The translations under genes and the position numbers were made by a program. Shown here in pieces: positions 2,586-9,544 of a DNA stretch of 64,000 bases. The stretch is from the sequence record PP261279.1; one strand, given 5' to 3'. The stretch is from Escherichia phage ECP2303. The notes below the pieces were generated by a model that did no database searches, was not told where the DNA came from, and saw only the letters and a list, made by a program, of their open reading frames with translations. Every line of letters starts with the position of its first letter. The stretch's first letter is position 1.

Positions 2586-2966
2586 TTAATCGTAGTGTGC
2601 CAAAATCTCTCCATCGTTGCAAGTTCCCTCTACAAAGTTATGAAGATTCATGCACTCATCTTGATAGAAGAATTTACCGCTTTTCAGCCGTAAGCCAAAC
2701 AACTCCGCATCTCCACGATGGCAAGCCTCTACAAGTTCATAGATTTCATACGGCAACTCTCCGTCGTCATGGAAGAACCCAGCCTTATCGTTGACATAGA
2801 TGAAGAAATAATCACTGCTGTCGCAAGCGTCCAATATTTTAAACCAGATTTCATCTACATCTTTTTCTCGGATATCGATCACGCAAGTGGAGCTGCATTC
2901 GTACTCCTTCTCCGGCTCCTCGGTCAATACCACCAGGTAGTTTCCCCGCTTACCTACTTTAGCCAT
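2586..2966 (-). CDS. Hypothetical protein (126 aa)
   Basis: ORF co-oriented with its neighbours and followed on the minus strand by a UUCG-tetraloop terminator at 2557-2574. Confidence 0.55.
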   Translation of the reverse strand: MAKVGKRGNYLVVLTEEPEKEYECSSTCVIDIREKDVDEIWFKILDACDSSDYFFIYVNDKAGFFHDDGELPYEIYELVEACHRGDAELFGLRLKSGKFFYQDECMNLHNFVEGTCNDGEILAHYD

Positions 2967-2975
2967 ACAACCTCC

Positions 2976-4160
2976 TTAAGCTTTAGCCAAAATGGCGCTA
3001 AACTCTTCACCAAACTCTTTTACAATCTTCATCAGGTTTGGGTATGCTTTGATCAGCTGAGCAACGATCTTGTCACGACCTTTACCGATAAGCAAGGCAT
3101 TTCCTAAGGCATTAGGTTTCATCATCGCCATAAAGACTGAAAATACAAAATCTCGGTTCTCGTCCTTGAAGTTTTCCCAAAGGAAATCGAGAAAGTTTGC
3201 CACACAGCTAACAAGATCTTCGTCGGAGATACTTGCATTTTCCATCATATTACGAATAGCGATGCAACCTTCAGATCCAAGAATCCACAAGATGTCTGGC
3301 TGTTTAGGACCTACGTATTCTTTGCAACCTCCTGCCATAATCCGACCGATTTCCGGTAAGTTGCGTTTCTTGGTGTGGTAAGTCCAGATCTCTACCGCTG
3401 CAGTGTGACCAATAGCACCTTGCAGAAGAACACGGGCCATAGCGTCAGAAATAATACCGCTGTCAAAATCGTGCAAGATATCAGATGCAGCAACCCAAGA
3501 TCGCGGTGTGGCAAAAGATGGACAATTAATCTCAGCCATGGCCTCATAATTATCGATAGCTGATGGAACTCTTTTCAGATATCCAATTACAGAGGAGTGC
3601 ACCCCATTAAGGAATGCGTAGTCCTCAATAAACACCTCTGCATTGCTTGTAACCTCTACAATGATAAAACGGTTAGCCAGAGGGGCTTCGAGCGCCGAAA
3701 GAACCGCACCATCTGTAGAACGGTTACCAGCAGCCACAAAAACAGACCCCTTAGGGAATGCATAAGTACCGCACTTGTGGTCAAGCATAATTTGCATTGC
3801 AACCTTTTGTAGGTAGTTATCTGCATGAGTGAGCTCATCCAGAAAGATAATTCCGCTCCAGTCAGGATCCGCAGGCCAAAATTCTGGAATTGCAAACACT
3901 GTACGTGTAGTTCCATCCGCTTCTACAGGGATAGGTAGCCCAGATAAGTCGGCAGGATCTTTATCTGACAGCCGCACGTCAACAAGGTTGTCATCTCGCT
4001 CACCGAACATATTATCAGCGATCTGCTTCATCACCTGGCTTTTACCTACACCCATTGGTCCCAAAATTAGGACAGATCGGCTATGACGTTGGGCAAACTG
4101 AATAATAGCTGGCAACTCACGGACAGTGATTTGACCACTTTCGAATACGTTTCTTGACAT
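2976..4160 (-). CDS. MoxR-like AAA+ ATPase
   Basis: 394 aa. Walker A LILGPMGVGKSQ and Walker B IIFLDELTHA in a single AAA domain followed by a C-terminal extension, which is the MoxR/AAA_5 architecture. Confidence 0.8.
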   Translation of the reverse strand: MSRNVFESGQITVRELPAIIQFAQRHSRSVLILGPMGVGKSQVMKQIADNMFGERDDNLVDVRLSDKDPADLSGLPIPVEADGTTRTVFAIPEFWPADPDWSGIIFLDELTHADNYLQKVAMQIMLDHKCGTYAFPKGSVFVAAGNRSTDGAVLSALEAPLANRFIIVEVTSNAEVFIEDYAFLNGVHSSVIGYLKRVPSAIDNYEAMAEINCPSFATPRSWVAASDILHDFDSGIISDAMARVLLQGAIGHTAAVEIWTYHTKKRNLPEIGRIMAGGCKEYVGPKQPDILWILGSEGCIAIRNMMENASISDEDLVSCVANFLDFLWENFKDENRDFVFSVFMAMMKPNALGNALLIGKGRDKIVAQLIKAYPNLMKIVKEFGEEFSAILAKA

Positions 4161-4429
4161 TAGTAAAAGTCCTCTACTTGTGTGTAAGTGTTTTCAAAGT
4201 TTTCCAAAACAGATATCACATCGGATCTGTCAATATCATACGTGACTCTCCAGTTGTACGCAACCCTTTCTGCTGTTGCCTCTTCTGGCGCTAGTCGTCT
4301 GCTGGCATAAAAGAGTGTTGGAGTACACTTTCTTGCTTGCCCTCTAACTTTCCCATAATAATATCTGTGAATATCTTTGTCAAAATTTAACTCTTTTTCT
4401 GCACGAAGTTCATATTGCTGGTATAACAT
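4160..4429 (-). CDS. Hypothetical protein (89 aa)
   Basis: Tightly packed, co-oriented ORF whose stop overlaps the next start. Confidence 0.45.
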   Translation of the reverse strand: MLYQQYELRAEKELNFDKDIHRYYYGKVRGQARKCTPTLFYASRRLAPEEATAERVAYNWRVTYDIDRSDVISVLENFENTYTQVEDFY

Positions 4430-4473
4430 CTCTACTACTCCTTAAGCAGCATCCTTGCCGCCATTCCTGCCCA

Positions 4474-4854
4474 CTAAAATGCAGTCCGAATCCAGACAAG
4501 GTTCTTATCTGCCCAATCATAGAGGCAAGTCATTGCACTATTGAATTGCTCACACGGAGGATAATCTTCTTCCATCTGACGCATAGCAGAGCCTTGTGGG
4601 TAAAGCTCCCGTGCTGCAAACCACGCGTCGTAGTCATCAACGGTGTCGAAGTAGTATACAACATCCTCCAACTCAGGATCGAACTTTGAACTATCAGGAT
4701 CCAGTTGTTCAGGGAACTTGGAGCGTAACTTGCCAGCCACAATACTTGCCAACTCGCTAACATGCTTATTGTCCCACTCCATTAGCTTCCCGTCTTCAGT
4801 GATGCGTCCTAACCACTGATCATGAAGGTCAACTGTTGTCTTCCACCGGGCCAT
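4474..4854 (-). CDS. Hypothetical acidic protein (126 aa)
   Basis: Co-oriented ORF in the early operon; no motif recognised. Confidence 0.5.
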   Translation of the reverse strand: MARWKTTVDLHDQWLGRITEDGKLMEWDNKHVSELASIVAGKLRSKFPEQLDPDSSKFDPELEDVVYYFDTVDDYDAWFAARELYPQGSAMRQMEEDYPPCEQFNSAMTCLYDWADKNLVWIRTAF

Positions 4855-4856
4855 TA

Positions 4857-5114
4857 TCAGTCCACCTCTTCTTCTCGTTGTAGTTCAAGATACCCGTAGG
4901 TCTGGACATCTTCAAGGGTGTGGAACTCCCCATCTGCCGCTAATGCACGAACAACTTGGCACAAAACCTTATGAGGAACTTCATCCAGACCAAGATTCAG
5001 TGCAGGGAACACCTTATCTAAGTCAACAAAATAAATGAACTGTAGCTCACCAGCTTCAAAAGGTGTATCTTCAATAAACATCTTCTCGGCATTAGTCAAG
5101 ATCTGCACTTTCAT
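4857..5114 (-). CDS. Hypothetical protein (85 aa)
   Basis: Co-oriented ORF separated from its neighbours by 0-3 nt. Confidence 0.45.
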   Translation of the reverse strand: MKVQILTNAEKMFIEDTPFEAGELQFIYFVDLDKVFPALNLGLDEVPHKVLCQVVRALAADGEFHTLEDVQTYGYLELQREEEVD

Positions 5115-5491
5115 TATTCTACCTCCTCTTCTTTTTCTTCGGCATTAGTTTCATGGCTACCCCACTCTGGAGTTTCCACCTCGATAGTAAACTCACGCAC
5201 TACACGGTAATTGCCCATGAAGCGCTCCACTTCGTCAAGGCTTATGGAGAGGCCATTGGCAACCAGGTCTGCAGCACCCTCTTCTACCAGGTAGTCCAGA
5301 TTGGCTTCCAGAGCTTCAGGTTCAAACCCTGTCAATGCAATCAGATAACCTTTCCCTTCATCAGGGAGGACAATACATCCCAACTGATTTTCTTTAAAAA
5401 GGCAGTGACCATCATTATTGATTGGGTGTTCATTGCAGTAAATAGCTGCACGATAAGTAACTTTAGACATCGGCAAGGTCTCCTTAGGCAA
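5114..5491 (-). CDS. Hypothetical protein (125 aa) with acidic C-terminus
   Basis: Co-oriented ORF; stop/start overlap with its neighbour. Confidence 0.5.
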   Translation of the reverse strand: MPKETLPMSKVTYRAAIYCNEHPINNDGHCLFKENQLGCIVLPDEGKGYLIALTGFEPEALEANLDYLVEEGAADLVANGLSISLDEVERFMGNYRVVREFTIEVETPEWGSHETNAEEKEEEVE

Positions 5492-5762
5492 TTGTCATTT
5501 TACATTCTTGAAATTTTAACACAAGACGGTGATTGTGTCTAGTGTCTAAAAAGATTTTTTCAACCATCAGGCACACGGTATAACCGTCCATCTTGTTGAC
5601 AACAAAATCTCCAGGGTAAGGGAGAGTGTCCCCTGGGCTGGGAAAGCATAACCCGCTCAGAAAGGCATCATCGGTGGTGGACTTAATGGATTTCCACACA
5701 CTATCTGCCTGAACATTCTCACCAACATAATATACACTACCACATGACTTCATCATAGTCAA
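5484..5762 (-). CDS. Hypothetical protein (92 aa)
   Basis: Co-oriented ORF overlapping both neighbours by a few codons; the true start is uncertain. Confidence 0.4.
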   Translation of the reverse strand: MTMMKSCGSVYYVGENVQADSVWKSIKSTTDDAFLSGLCFPSPGDTLPYPGDFVVNKMDGYTVCLMVEKIFLDTRHNHRLVLKFQECKMTIA

Positions 5763-6657
5763 TCTCCGCGTAAATTAAACTGGAATCAGTATACTTCTTT
5801 AATGGGTAAATATCCTGTCCATAGATGCAATCATTAAACACCTCATCTACCCAAAGGCTACGCTTATATCCCATCATTTCTAAAACACTCATCTCTTCTT
5901 CGGTAAACTTATCACCACTCTTGCAAGATGTCAATACCTCATTTTGAACTCTTGCTACCTCGAATCGGTTATTGGCAATATCGCTATTGGCGATCAAATA
6001 CTCACCTAGAGGGTGTGCGGCATTAAAGATGCACAGTGGACGGCTGACGTAATAGTCTCCGGGTGTATAAAAATTGTTGAGGTCTTTCACTAGAACATTC
6101 TTATCAGTCACTTCATTTATAACATCATGCATATCGCACATCTTTATATGTTTGAGGATTCCATCTCCCATCACAAAATAAAAACTTGCTGAGACACTTT
6201 CGGCATAGATCTTACTAGATCCGTTGTAGTTGTATTTTACTCGGATGCTAACGGGGGTTTTTCCTGTCGCGTTAGCCATCATCCAAAGAAATGGCAGCTC
6301 ATACTTCTCCTCTGAGGAAACAAAAGGTGAGGTAGCCAGAGATCGAAAACCTCCAGAGAAGTTGAAAGTTACAGAACCGCTCCGGCGGTATGATACCGCG
6401 TATTCTACTTTTATATCGACGTACCCATTGGAATAGGTGTGTCCTTCATTATCTAAATATGTCCACTTATCAGACCCAGATACCAATCTACGCTCAATAA
6501 CCTTCATCACTACAGGAATTAGTGGGTTGGTACAAACCGCTTTTGAAGTAGCTTTATCATCTAAAGCCTCGTAAATTGCAGAAAGGATGTCCCCAGCTGA
6601 AAGATTGGTTGTTATGTCCTGTTTCCACCGCGTACTAAAACTGTTAAGATTTGCCAT
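5737..6657 (-). CDS. Hypothetical protein (306 aa); first gene of the leftward early operon
   Basis: ATG at 6657 is preceded by AGGAG on the minus strand and lies just downstream of the TTGACT-N17-TATAGT promoter. Confidence 0.65.
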   Translation of the reverse strand: MANLNSFSTRWKQDITTNLSAGDILSAIYEALDDKATSKAVCTNPLIPVVMKVIERRLVSGSDKWTYLDNEGHTYSNGYVDIKVEYAVSYRRSGSVTFNFSGGFRSLATSPFVSSEEKYELPFLWMMANATGKTPVSIRVKYNYNGSSKIYAESVSASFYFVMGDGILKHIKMCDMHDVINEVTDKNVLVKDLNNFYTPGDYYVSRPLCIFNAAHPLGEYLIANSDIANNRFEVARVQNEVLTSCKSGDKFTEEEMSVLEMMGYKRSLWVDEVFNDCIYGQDIYPLKKYTDSSLIYAEIDYDEVMW

Positions 6658-6697
6658 AAGTAAGTGCTCCTATGTTAGTTTTCTTTCGAATGGGTGC

Positions 6698-6726
6698 ACT
6701 ATATTGTGGAGTTAGAGTAAAGTCAA
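6698..6726 (-). promoter_or_regulatory. Sigma70-like promoter for the leftward early operon
   Basis: Minus strand reads TTGACT (6726-6721), a 17-nt spacer, then TATAGT (6703-6698). An AGGAG-ATG follows about 40 nt downstream. Confidence 0.6.
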
Positions 6727-6733
6727 CACGTTT

Positions 6734-7777
6734 TTGATGTTGACATCTGTTGAGACAATTGATACGATTTCTTCACTTACAGAGCACGAGAGACGACGCA
6801 TGAATCTTGAAAAATATTATACACCAGAAGAGTTAGAGCGCTTGCTCAAAAAATATAGACGCAAACAGAATAACGCACGGAAACGAGATATAGAGTTCGA
6901 CCTGTCATGGGAAGAATACCTCCTATTTGGTAAAAAACTTTTAGGAGATGGAGTATGCGACTATACCCTTATACCTTTTGACATGCACACAGATGAAAAC
7001 GGGCTGGGGAATCCTTTCTACCCATCTTTGGAGCGTATAGATGATGAAGGTCCTTACGCAATTGACAATTGTTGTGTGGTAGGGTTGAGGTGCAATGCTC
7101 TGAAAGACTGTCTGGTAGATAAAAAGACTGCAATCCTGATTAAAGACAAAACTGATCGAAAAATTGTCCAGCAGATGATGCTCCACCTGAGTGAAGAGCG
7201 TATGGAGAAGTTGAAAGGTGATTATACTTTTGAAGATTTCATCTTGCAATACGGGACAGAAGAAGATAAACTAGCACTATTTGACGAAGAGGAAGAAGAT
7301 ATGTCACCGATGCAGGATTTTAAAAATTTCATGGCTGATCGTGCAGCCAACAAACACATTTCAGACATCGTAAACGAGACTGTGACAGAAGAAATTGAAG
7401 AACAGACATCTGAAGAGGAAAAAGAGCCTCAGGTGGTTGAAGAGGAGATTGCAGAAGAGGTTCCTGCACTGCCTGATGATGTTGAGATTGCTAAGGCTTA
7501 CACTTTCTATTGTCAAACGTTCTACGATGCAGGTATGAAAGTTGACCTGTCGTTCAGCCAATTTAAGAGTTCGTATATTCGCAAATGCTGTGCTTTAACT
7601 GGTGAACGTCTCGGAGCTGGACTTAAACCACTGTTGGTGACCGACTGGAATAAAGGTTTCACTAAAGGAAACTTTATGGTAGTATCTCCAATTATGGAGA
7701 AAGCTATGACAGATCTTATGAAGACCACCCGCATGACAATGACCGAGTTGGCAGGTATTTTCAAACACGTTAAATAA
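6734..7777 (+). CDS. Hypothetical protein with acidic Glu-rich region; probable true start at 6800
   Basis: The ORF-track start at 6734 sits inside the promoter -35 box. The first ATG downstream of the predicted transcription start is at 6800 (MNLEKYYTPEEL...). A Glu-rich low-complexity stretch is present. Confidence 0.65.
   Translation: MMLTSVETIDTISSLTEHERRRMNLEKYYTPEELERLLKKYRRKQNNARKRDIEFDLSWEEYLLFGKKLLGDGVCDYTLIPFDMHTDENGLGNPFYPSLERIDDEGPYAIDNCCVVGLRCNALKDCLVDKKTAILIKDKTDRKIVQQMMLHLSEERMEKLKGDYTFEDFILQYGTEEDKLALFDEEEEDMSPMQDFKNFMADRAANKHISDIVNETVTEEIEEQTSEEEKEPQVVEEEIAEEVPALPDDVEIAKAYTFYCQTFYDAGMKVDLSFSQFKSSYIRKCCALTGERLGAGLKPLLVTDWNKGFTKGNFMVVSPIMEKAMTDLMKTTRMTMTELAGIFKHVK
6739..6767 (+). 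promoter_or_regulatory. Sigma70-like promoter for the rightward early operon
   Basis: TTGACA (6739-6744), a 17-nt spacer, then TACGAT (6762-6767). Its -35 box and that of the divergent promoter lie in the two arms of a 7-bp inverted repeat GTCAACA(6722-6728)/TGTTGAC(6738-6744). Confidence 0.55.
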
Positions 7778-7783
7778 TGACAG

Positions 7784-7798
7784 GGGCCATTGGCCCCT
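7784..7798 (+). terminator. Weak hairpin or attenuator between the acidic-protein gene and the VWA gene
   Basis: GGGGCCATTGGCCCC hairpin followed by a short interrupted T-tract. The probable VWA start (ATG 7811, GGAG 7 nt upstream) follows immediately. Confidence 0.3.
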
Positions 7799-9271
7799 TC
7801 TGGAGTTTTAATGGATAGCAGAAGTTCAGAAATCATTGCCTCACAGAAAGATGATGCCCTGAGAATGTTGCAGGCTGCACGTATGTATCTCCTTGAAAAG
7901 CTGCCGTTTTATGGCACACTGCTGTCAGGATTGCAGTTCGTAGAAAACCACACATGGTGCTCCACCATGGCAACCGACCATAAACGCATCTATTACAGCC
8001 CTGAGTTCATTATGGGATTGGCTGATGAACGCAAGGTTATTCTTAAGGCTTCTCTAACTGACGAACAGTTTGAGATGGCTGAGGTTTTCTATTCCCTCAA
8101 ATCTGTGAAAGAGGTGGCTTTTCTTCTGTCACACGAGGTGGGGCATATTATCTGTGATCACCTGGTCCGTGGTAAAAGCTTCGAGCCGGAACTGTTTAAT
8201 ATTGCTTGTGATCATGTTATCAACACAGGTCTTGTGGTTGACTTTAGCAAGCCTCCCTGTGTTTTCTTCCCGAAGGGGAAAAGCACTACGTTCGTGAAAG
8301 GTAAGCCTTTTGGTTTCTTAGCCAGCTGCTACTGCGACATGAGGTTTCATGGATGGATTGCTGAGAACGTCTATGCGGTTCTTGATAAGCAAAGAGATCA
8401 GAATAACGGTAAAAGTAAGAGCGGTAAAGGTGAGAACTCTCAAGGGGATAAGCGACAAACCGATGATCACATGAGTGGGAACGGTGGCACCAGCGATGAT
8501 CTTGGAAAGGCTATGGGGTATGATCAGCCACAACCTGTAATCAGCCAATCTGATAAAGATCAGGCCATGCAAGACTCTGGTGACATGCTGGAAGCAGCAA
8601 TGCAAGCTTCCGGAGGTCGTTGCCCCGAGGCGGTGCGTGAGTTTGTCAAGAACAGAGGTAAGCCTGTAATCAACTATATAGACATCATTAAGCAACGCAT
8701 GTTGTCTAAACGAAAGGCCGAACTGACCTACAGAAAACCTGGTCGCCGATCTGGGTCTTTGACCAGCACAATGCGAAAAGTTGGGGCTATAAACAAGAAC
8801 CAGCACGTTATTGTTCCTGGTCGTAATCCGGAAAACACCATAGATATTGTGGTAGCTTTAGACGTTTCTGGCTCGATATCTCAAAGAACTTTAAAGAAAA
8901 TGTTCAATGAAATCACCGGATTGTGCAATCTGTATAAAGAGTTTAAGGTTACAATGTTCTGTTGGTCAACTGAAGTCGGAGAGGTTAAAGTATATACTCG
9001 CGGCAACATAGACGAAATGATCAACTATGAGGTCCACTCAACATGGGGCACAACAGCTGCTTGCGTGTTCGAGTATCTGGATGCCAACATACCAAATGCA
9101 AAAGATGTCATCGTCCTGACCGACCTATACTTTGAGCATAACTTTGAACAAAAGGCTGTTGACAACAAGTGGAAAAAGTACGATACTTTATGGGTTCTCA
9201 CCGAAGGGTATAATAAAAATTATATCCCTAGCTTTGGTAAAACTGTGGAATTAATCGAGTACGCTAAGTAA
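7790..9271 (+). CDS. Metallopeptidase-motif + von Willebrand factor A domain protein (DUF2201-like architecture); probable true start at 7811
   Basis: N-terminal half contains HExxH (SHEVGHIICDH). C-terminal half contains the VWA MIDAS motif DxSxS (VALDVSGSIS). Proteins of this architecture are typically partners of MoxR ATPases. Confidence 0.8.
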   Translation: MAPSGVLMDSRSSEIIASQKDDALRMLQAARMYLLEKLPFYGTLLSGLQFVENHTWCSTMATDHKRIYYSPEFIMGLADERKVILKASLTDEQFEMAEVFYSLKSVKEVAFLLSHEVGHIICDHLVRGKSFEPELFNIACDHVINTGLVVDFSKPPCVFFPKGKSTTFVKGKPFGFLASCYCDMRFHGWIAENVYAVLDKQRDQNNGKSKSGKGENSQGDKRQTDDHMSGNGGTSDDLGKAMGYDQPQPVISQSDKDQAMQDSGDMLEAAMQASGGRCPEAVREFVKNRGKPVINYIDIIKQRMLSKRKAELTYRKPGRRSGSLTSTMRKVGAINKNQHVIVPGRNPENTIDIVVALDVSGSISQRTLKKMFNEITGLCNLYKEFKVTMFCWSTEVGEVKVYTRGNIDEMINYEVHSTWGTTAACVFEYLDANIPNAKDVIVLTDLYFEHNFEQKAVDNKWKKYDTLWVLTEGYNKNYIPSFGKTVELIEYAK

Positions 9272-9277
9272 GAGAGG

Positions 9278-9544
9278 ATGTTATTTATGGCAACAGAGGT
9301 AGTAATTAAAGCTGAACGCCCAGTTAAAAAAGCTATCAACACGTTCCCTGTGGGGACCATTGTGAGCATGATCACAGAGTCAGGTCGTGTATCTACGCTG
9401 CTGATTGTGAAATCTGCATGTTCTTCTTGTGTGTGGGCTTACGATCTGGACGAGAAAGAACTAAAAGATTTTGTTGGGGAGCTGAAAGCAACCGAGCTCG
9501 ATGCTCGTATCGAAGTATTTGGTGAAACTATGGAGGAAGAGTAA
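9278..9544 (+). CDS. Hypothetical protein (88 aa)
   Basis: GAGAGG lies directly upstream of the ATG; co-oriented early ORF. Confidence 0.5.
   Translation: MLFMATEVVIKAERPVKKAINTFPVGTIVSMITESGRVSTLLIVKSACSSCVWAYDLDEKELKDFVGELKATELDARIEVFGETMEEE

Follow-up and report, generated by a model that had tools for sequence, protein, structure and literature searches.

Escherichia phage ECP2303 carries, on the two sides of a divergent intergenic region, a gene for an AAA+ ATPase of the MoxR class (2976-4160, minus strand) and a gene for a zincin-like protein that ends in a VWA domain (7811-9271, plus strand). We analyzed both genes in a stretch of 64,000 nucleotides from sequence record PP261279.1, referred to below as the window. 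It belongs to a Vequintavirus (rV5-like) genome, these phages being myoviruses with genomes of ~137 kb; over positions 2900-9300 it is 100% identical to Escherichia phage ECP2309 and 90-98% identical to 120 further records, nearly all of them Vequintavirus. A sequence-only reading of the window had put the two genes forward as a candidate early-expressed module, and as such they are not new: related GenBank records label the first product “MoxR ATPase” (so rV5 ORF4) or “ATPase”, and the second “putative metallopeptidase” or “VWA-like domain containing protein”, with “HNH endonuclease” and “anti-sigma factor” as erroneous alternatives. The two genes thus already bear annotations in rV5-like phages; a description of them as a pair exists for jumbo phages (PMC7824862), and in N4-like phages they count among the core genes (PMC4193335). 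What we add is that the non-adjacent rV5 genes still form an obligate pair, as far as genomics shows, that their separation is derived, that they are linked to N4 gp24/gp25, that homologues occur on plasmids, and a list of the residues that do not vary.

The class of the ATPase had to be established from a family profile and a structure model, because direct family scans gave sub-threshold P-loop matches. All Pfam AAA models fell below threshold (AAA_5 scored 16.7 bits against a cut-off of 22, with the P-loop region alone aligned), an NCBIfam scan returned nothing useful, PADLOC gave P-loop-level matches alone (E >1e-3), and a PDB search with the single sequence brought up Clp, p97 and the like through P-loop matches that stayed below threshold. 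A phmmer search, on the other hand, retrieved thousands of relatives, which at identities of about 35% or less are 360-residue proteins with AAA_3 (the MoxR model) and AAA_5 (E ~1e-44). These two models matched 12 of 34 relatives at ~31-33% identity (best E 2.4e-9 for AAA_5 and 1.2e-8 for AAA_3), and a profile built from 34 sequences matched a midasin AAA module in the PDB from Walker A to the NRF motif (E = 5.9e-10). An AlphaFold model of the protein (predicted local distance difference test score, pLDDT, 82.6) gave CbbQ2 (6l1q) and NorQ (9qh4-9qhg) as ranks 1-16 of a Foldseek search against the PDB, with E values of 1e-8 to 5e-7 and target-normalized template modeling (TM) scores of 0.62-0.67; MoxR-family 2r44 and cso-CbbQ 5c3c were also among the matches. 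Thus 2976-4160 encodes a divergent MoxR-class AAA+ ATPase, as established by this indirect route. The MoxR assignment of the sequence-only reading therefore stands on profile, relatives and fold, while the signature it took to be directly visible in the protein is one that the Pfam AAA models do not detect above their cut-offs.

The protein consists of an AAA+ module (~residues 1-270) and an extra C-terminal helical domain of ~125 residues that has no counterpart in the CbbQ and NorQ chains of ~250-270 residues, its best fold matches. Inspected for the helix-2 insert and pre-sensor-1 β-hairpins of the MoxR class, the model has, by its secondary structure alone, a β-hairpin at residues 74-89, after the Walker A helix and before the Walker B strand, and a few short strands at residues 127-133 ahead of the sensor-1 strand; both ranges are in model numbering, which lies one below the true residue since the alignment and the model were built on residues 2-394. 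Conservation was scored over 57 distinct homologues, 56 of which cover the Walker and sensor-1 positions, one being truncated. Walker A, Walker B, N146/R147, R164 and P219/R220 are identical in every covering homologue (56-57 of 57). The functions given to N146/R147, N163-R164 and P219-R220 in Table 1 were assigned by position; that of N146/R147 as sensor 1 is suggested by their place after the β4 strand of the model.

The partner protein gave direct matches. Its longest open reading frame extends from a TTG at 7790 to 9271; ATG 7811 was taken as the start because it has GGAG six bases upstream and coincides with the GenBank start. In the 493-residue translation of the longest frame, Pfam DUF2201_N (“putative metallopeptidase domain”; E = 5.6e-28, 98.7 bits where the cut-off is 23.2) covers residues 105-321 and DUF2201 (“VWA-like domain”; E = 3.5e-11, 43.7 bits against 26.4) covers residues 353-488, so that both domains follow in N-to-C order above their gathering scores. 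The HExxH and DxSxS motifs proposed from the sequence lie at the conserved family positions and hold up on comparison: in 61 distinct homologues from viral metagenome loci (22-98% identity), H108, E109, H112 and H117, the helix residues N130, D134 and N138, and all five residues of the metal ion-dependent adhesion site (MIDAS; D351, S353, S355, T414 and D438) are invariant (61/61). One distant member of a 25-sequence alignment has HAxxH instead of HExxH. The third metal ligand is likely D134 or H117. In the model (pLDDT 78 overall, >90 for residues 1-110), HExxH lies in a helix with D134 on the following helix, and NorD and BchD are among the solved fold matches of the VWA domain.

Two further segments of this protein stand out. 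The rV5-like members carry a low-complexity insertion rich in Gly, Ser, Lys and Asp at ~200-228, with low pLDDT, which is missing from shorter homologues such as N4 gp25 and those of marine phages. A conserved basic segment at ~300-316 (“...TYRKPGRRSGS...”, pattern YR(K/R)PxRRS) precedes the VWA domain within a region of low model confidence (~284-341); speculatively, this may be where the ATPase ring grips the protein.

Table 1. Features of the ATPase and zincin-VWA genes and of the region between them (window positions).
Feature	Position	Strand	Basis and remarks
MoxR-class AAA+ ATPase, 394 amino acids (aa), ATG start	2976..4160	-	Open reading frame; PHROG 1297 (E 2e-110); N4 gp24 homologue
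Walker A GPMGVGKS, G34-S41	4038..4061	-	Translation; G34, G37, G39, K40, S41 identical in 56/56 covering homologues
Walker B LDE, D108 and E109	3834..3842	-	Identical in 56/56 covering homologues
Putative sensor-1 N146 and R147	3720..3725	-	Identical in 56/56 covering homologues
N163-R164, “NRF” motif	3669..3674	-	Matches NRF of midasin AAA alignment; invariant; arginine-finger candidate
P219-R220, candidate sensor-2 arginine of lid domain	3501..3506	-	Invariant 57/57
Zincin-like (DUF2201_N) and VWA (DUF2201) protein, 486 aa	7811..9271	+	Pfam; PHROG 1314; N4 gp25 homologue
HEVGHIICDH: HExxH (H108, E109, H112) and H117, predicted helix 99-118	8132..8161	+	Invariant 61/61
HEVGH core of HExxH motif	8132-8146	+	At conserved family position
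NIACDHVIN: N130, D134, N138 on next helix (126-144)	8198..8224	+	Invariant 61/61
Compact VWA domain, residues ~344-486	8840..9268	+	
MIDAS DVSGS (DxSxS: D351, S353, S355)	8861..8875	+	Aligned to DGSGS of integrin alpha-X I-domain
MIDAS T414	9050-9052	+	
MIDAS D438	9122-9124	+	
Divergent intergenic region	6658..6799	.	One sigma70-like site per strand, each with 10/12 consensus matches
Sigma70-like site TTGACT-17-TATAGT	6698-6726	-	Consensus match alone
Sigma70-like site TTGACA-17-TACGAT	6740-6768	+	Consensus match; coincides with rV5 annotated promoter P11
Best sigma70-like match of the region, TTGACA-17-TATTAT, 11/12	4355-4383	-	Inside open reading frame 4160-4429

The two genes travel together. 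We fetched 80 viral loci with the VWA protein and 80 with the ATPase, storing flanks of 10 kb. The ATPase gene lies within 10 kb in 77 of the 80 VWA-fetched loci; two of the other three loci are truncated on the upstream side. In the third (L013) the plus-strand upstream arm runs beyond the stored flank, so this locus is uninformative and was rejected as a counter-example. Conversely, the VWA gene is found in 71 of the 80 ATPase-fetched loci, and in the remaining nine the sequence stops past the ATPase, after 0-107 bases in eight of them and after 1,067 bases in the ninth. Co-occurrence in informative loci is therefore 77/78 and 71/71. In every locus the ATPase gene is upstream of the VWA gene; outside the rV5-like lineage the two share a strand and are separated by a median of 78 bp. 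The ATPase gene lies immediately upstream also in distant homologues on a 578-kb phage contig, an NCBI genome contig and marine phage contigs. Pairwise identities of the two proteins across loci are correlated with r = 0.95, as expected for co-inherited genes and with no sign of partner swapping. Searches of 50,697 GenBank phage records gave 820 matching records for one protein and 722 for the other, and split by host genus the two counts are nearly equal. No third gene family conserved with the pair is common to the rV5-like and the distant viral loci. The partnership proposed by the sequence-only reading is thus borne out by co-occurrence in both directions and by adjacency in every other lineage: as far as genomics shows, the two genes are obligately linked functional partners despite their separation.

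Two of the distant loci have unusual surroundings. The 578-kb contig, a phage sequence from a metagenome, has genes for HSP20, ClpS, ClpP and a T4-type RNA ligase around the pair, a proteostasis-flavored context; its ATPase is 465 residues long and aligns to the family profile in two pieces, as an insertion would produce. On the NCBI contig (GCA_045600625.1) a gene for a 1,076-residue SNF2/ResIII helicase precedes the pair, which is followed by a sub-threshold Peptidase_M50 protein (25.7 bits against 27.2) and by genes with LRR, metallophosphatase and protein-kinase matches; this differing context is possibly cellular or that of a giant virus.

The open reading frames and the GenBank annotation agree with the earlier description of the genes as non-adjacent and placed on divergent arms. 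They lie 3.6 kb apart in the window, and an opposite-strand pair with 3.4-5.1 kb between the genes is found in the window and 17 related loci. This split occurs only where the VWA protein is at least 39% identical to that of the window, that is, in Vequintavirus and the closest Vequintavirinae-like loci. In Certrevirus-like relatives (34-36% identity, for example Salmonella phage SSBI34) the genes are adjacent on one arm, and the pair is adjacent in all distant loci. Since the pair is adjacent and co-directional everywhere else, the rV5-like split is a derived rearrangement. The place immediately upstream of the VWA gene, occupied by the ATPase elsewhere, is taken by an Srd-like gene in each of the 17 split-lineage loci.

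Outside the rV5-like phages, the best described relatives are genes of N4. N4 gp24 matches the ATPase profile with E = 5e-59 (27% identity by BLASTP) and gp25 the VWA profile with E = 3.5e-59 (22% identity), which identifies the window pair, on sequence grounds, as orthologous in kind to gp24/gp25. These genes, encoding an AAA ATPase and a vWFA protein, are two of the 14 genes forming the core set in N4-like phages, or Schitoviridae (PMC4193335), and yield middle transcripts with unknown function (PMC4193335, PMC2784036). N4 gp25 has the same HExxH and DxSxS motifs as the window protein, and the genomic blocks are similar: the N4 order is gp24-gp25-dCTP deaminase ... rIIA-rIIB-helicase, and that along the minus strand of the window is ATPase-hypothetical-cell wall hydrolase-rIIA-rIIB-helicase. 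However, gp24 and gp25 are adjacent, co-directional and shorter (352 and 380 residues), whereas the window genes are divergent, with the Gly/Ser/Lys/Asp-rich insertion in the VWA protein and a longer C-terminal helical domain in the ATPase. The window proteins are linked by tblastn also to jumbo phages of the PBECO4, phAPEC6, Serratia BF and Pseudomonas 30-2 types, in which the genes are adjacent. Iyer, Anantharaman, Krishnan, Burroughs and Aravind (2021) described a pair of the same architecture, a MoxR AAA+ ATPase and a vWA protein with an N-terminal metallopeptidase domain, in group 2.2 jumbo phages (PMC7824862); the rV5-like split, the link to N4 and the plasmid homologues are not part of that description in the available portion of the paper.

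Better characterized MoxR-VWA systems resemble the phage pair in part. In the NorQ-NorD complex, cryo-electron microscopy shows the VWA domain docked on the MoxR ring, with force applied to the linker (PMC13036017). The phage proteins share 16-20% sequence identity with NorQ/NorD and CbbQ/CbbO, yet NorD and CbbO are devoid of a zincin domain, the phage ATPase has its additional C-terminal domain compared with NorQ and CbbQ, and the phage pair comes with neither a known client enzyme nor an evident finger-like extension in its VWA model. Acidianus two-tailed virus also encodes a MoxR-VWA pair (Scheele et al. 2011, as cited in PMC7824862 and PMC7159879), a likeness that we draw from those descriptions; by them, its pair belongs to an archaeal virus, has no peptidase domain and acts in extracellular tail growth. 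Eukaryotic midasin/Rea1 combines an AAA_5 ring of six AAA modules and a C-terminal MIDAS domain in a single giant polypeptide, but has no protease and works in ribosome biogenesis. The MoxR-vWA ternary conflict systems (Kaur et al. 2020, PMC7159879) have a conserved third component, VMAP or another, and variable effectors, in contrast to the viral loci, in which the rV5-like and the distant ones share no third gene; bpMoxR matches were weak and confined to 5 of 34 ATPase relatives (best E 9.6e-6). The VWA protein had no match in PADLOC, a library of defense rather than anti-defense proteins.

Homologues also occur outside phages. We found the VWA protein on 64 plasmids, 28 of them typed as conjugative, mainly from Burkholderia, Paraburkholderia, Cupriavidus, Ralstonia and Variovorax. 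In four of five plasmid loci examined, an annotated AAA/ATP-binding gene lies upstream of the DUF2201 gene on the same strand; the gene table of the fifth (L094) lists no ATPase gene and is incomplete, with a gap at the expected place. The DUF2201 proteins match with E values of 1e-53 to 1e-67, and the ATPases with E ~1e-42 in both loci tested; the plasmid ATPase homologue passes Pfam AAA_5 over the whole model (25.7 against 22 bits). Order and strand are those of the phage pair, but a gene for a ~300-residue protein stands between the two in three loci, and several small genes in one. This middle protein has no Pfam match and no homologue in the window or the viral loci. The three-gene cluster (loci L092, L094, L095 and L096), on plasmids of Burkholderiales and Rhodovastum, is preceded by a gene for a conserved 506-residue hypothetical protein and, in two loci, by one for a DUF3717 protein. 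It often lies directly upstream of type IV secretion genes (VirB11-like, TrbC/VirB2, VirB3 and VirB4), with toprim, ParB-like, methyltransferase or addiction-toxin genes as other neighbors. The presence of the pair on plasmids indicates that the module belongs to mobile elements generally, not to phages alone.

The sequence-only reading placed the genes in two early operons fired from back-to-back promoters. The divergent intergenic region does hold one sigma70-like site on each strand, from which early expression of both arms may be inferred; over the whole region the count of such sites is not above that of shuffled sequences (18 against 13.5±3.4), and a literature search found no transcript data for any rV5-like phage. 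The best sigma70-like match of the region is elsewhere, ~200 nucleotides upstream of the ATPase start. It differs from promoter P4, which the rV5 annotators placed directly upstream of the ATPase (~window 4206-4233). Either of them would give the ATPase a transcription start of its own.

To account for these observations, we favor a reading in which the two proteins form a two-component AAA+/zincin-VWA machine with a core function before late gene expression, still coupled in the rV5-like phages after their rearrangement; we would put its probability at roughly 45%. Judging from NorQ-NorD, CbbQ-CbbO and midasin, the ATPase would assemble into a hexamer on which the partner's VWA domain docks, and the MIDAS would capture an acidic residue of a target protein, whether encoded by the host or by the element. 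ATP hydrolysis might then remodel the target by a pull or twist passed on through VWA domain and linker, and the target may be presented to the N-terminal zincin domain for cleavage, or the zincin domain activated; such a coupling is suggested because the catalytic Glu of HExxH is invariant. The ATPase, HExxH and MIDAS residues are all intact and, judged from the alignments, under strong purifying selection. A core role before late expression, within a replication and nucleotide-metabolism block, is supported by the core and middle status of N4 gp24/gp25 and by the position of the genes in the rII/helicase/nucleotide-metabolism block. The rV5-like rearrangement would have put the genes on opposite arms of the divergent promoter region with the partnership kept.

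Several points weigh against this proposal. No zincin structure was among the fold matches listed for the N-terminal domain, VWA matches filling both lists, and it is the Pfam match, together with the invariant motif, that carries the peptidase assignment. The compact VWA model has no obvious long “finger” as in NorD, so the docking mode may differ. “Core function” is argued from conservation rather than essentiality, and “pre-late timing” from consensus promoters and the analogy with N4. The plasmid copies beside type IV secretion genes could equally indicate an assembly role. Our literature search found no experiment on any member of this phage family, nothing on the function or essentiality of N4 gp24/gp25 or of the rV5 genes, and no functional study among the four papers that name DUF2201; in the available text on the CRISPRi-ART genome-wide screens (T4, T5, SUSP1 with 138 coding sequences, and PTXU04), N4 is mentioned for its rII genes alone.

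What the machine acts on is where the explanations part. A virion-assembly chaperone with a processing protease, which would fold or assemble structural proteins and trim them, was proposed for the group 2.2 jumbo phages on the model of Acidianus two-tailed virus, whose tails need a MoxR-VWA pair to develop (PMC7824862, in the available portion). MoxR systems do generally mature large complexes (PMC7159879), the HSP20, ClpS and ClpP neighbors on the 578-kb contig would suit a chaperone, and the plasmid pair often abuts mating-pair genes for type IV secretion, another large assembly. We nevertheless consider this role unlikely: the pair is common to podoviruses (N4-like), myoviruses (rV5-like and jumbo) and virion-less plasmids, a span that makes a structure-specific client improbable, the N4 genes are middle and not late (PMC4193335), and in both the window and N4 they stand in the rII/helicase/nucleotide-metabolism block, a long way from structural genes. 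The one need common to lytic phages and conjugative plasmids is to become established in a new cell, which favors an accessory anti-defense or host-takeover effector, the role suggested by the sequence-only reading, that early on degrades or inactivates a host immunity or housekeeping protein, as do the sigma70-like promoters of arms with many small reading frames and the methyltransferase, ParB-like, toprim and addiction-toxin genes near some plasmid copies. Anti-defense genes are typically patchy and fast-evolving. The pair, however, is near-universal in whole phage families, is core in N4-like phages (PMC4193335) and has fully invariant catalytic residues; because this conservation extends across several phage families, we prefer a core function to an accessory one, and hold the effector about as unlikely as the assembly role. 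A broader proposal, which we regard as doubtful, is that the pair is a mobile-element-wide, ATP-driven, MIDAS-targeted protease, essential in N4-like, rV5-like, Rak2/PBECO4-like jumbo and AR9 phages and used by conjugative plasmids, that acts soon after entry on a conserved host factor or on the replication or transcription machinery of the element.

Proteolysis might also be absent altogether, with the pair serving as a pure chaperone or in metal insertion, like NorQ/NorD, CobS/CobT or BchI/BchD, and HExxH merely binding metal. The closest solved folds (NorQ and CbbQ for the ATPase, NorD and BchD for the VWA domain) lean this way, and the dCTP deaminase and thymidylate synthase genes adjoining the pair in N4 and metagenomic loci could be read in the same sense; yet the catalytic Glu of HExxH is invariant (61/61), which is expected of a hydrolase and not of a mere metal site, and no third “client” gene is conserved across lineages, which makes such a chaperone quite improbable. 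It is very hard to credit that the rV5-like genes have been functionally independent since their separation. They do lie in different transcription units 3.4-5.1 kb apart, and the separate promoter P4 is annotated for the rV5 ATPase, but both genes retain all catalytic residues in the 17 split loci and in 114 GenBank records covering at least 80% of the region, and the divergence of the two proteins stays correlated. The coupled machine with a core, pre-late function thus remains the reading we prefer.

Around the two genes, several neighbors and sequence elements deserve comment. The gene directly upstream of the VWA gene (6800-7777, plus strand; 325 residues) is annotated “anti-sigma factor” or “anti-termination protein”; its product has an acidic low-complexity stretch between two Cys-containing regions, no Pfam match, and PHROG labels that range over HNH endonuclease, endonuclease VII, “decoy of host sigma70” and Srd anti-sigma factor. 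As some GenBank records show two “ATPase” genes, it was considered as the true ATPase partner and rejected, since it has no P-loop and its PHROGs are Srd-, anti-sigma- and HNH-like. Between its stop codon and the ribosome-binding site of the VWA gene lies a perfect GC-rich hairpin (7782-7798; AGGGGCC-ATT-GGCCCCT) followed by TCTGGAGTTTT; the hairpin might modulate VWA expression as a weak terminator, as an attenuator or through RNA stability. On the other arm, 5737-6657 (minus strand) is called “putative alpha 1-3 fucosyltransferase” in many records, a label that stems from a weak similarity in the rV5 record; its product has no match in Pfam, NCBIfam or PADLOC and falls in a PHROG of unknown function.

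Other labels and records in the databases call for care. PHROG 1314, the DUF2201 zincin-VWA family, carries the wrong label “HNH endonuclease”, which now stands in dozens of records of N4-like and rV5-like phages, and PHROG 13164, to which the 89-residue reading frame at 4160-4429 belongs, is labeled “ATPase”. In the rV5 reference (DQ832317) the VWA gene (7756-9217) is broken into overlapping ORF12 (7756-9081) and ORF13 (8972-9217), and tblastn with the VWA protein needs two pieces to cover it; probably the old sequence contains a frameshift error. Sixteen “Campylobacter phage” records with C. jejuni as host, MG065661 and MG065677 among them, match the E. coli Vequintavirus region at 90% identity or more, with 99% protein identity in the two records listed, and look like mislabeled or contaminant genomes. 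CP057073.1 (137,565 bp), deposited as an Escherichia coli “plasmid”, holds the VWA gene at 98.4% identity and is most likely a Vequintavirus genome assembled together with a bacterial isolate.

These results do not overturn the current annotation and frame a well-defined open question rather than a surprise, for which ATPase K40 and E109 and partner E109 and D351 are natural mutational targets. The split arrangement of the rV5-like genes does not mean that they are independent. Few gene sets outside structure and replication are conserved across large lytic phages that differ so much, and the pair is one of them: it is present in all rV5-like and many jumbo phages and core in N4-like phages. 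If the proposal of a mobile-element-wide protease were true, the pair would represent an “establishment” function common to invading DNA.

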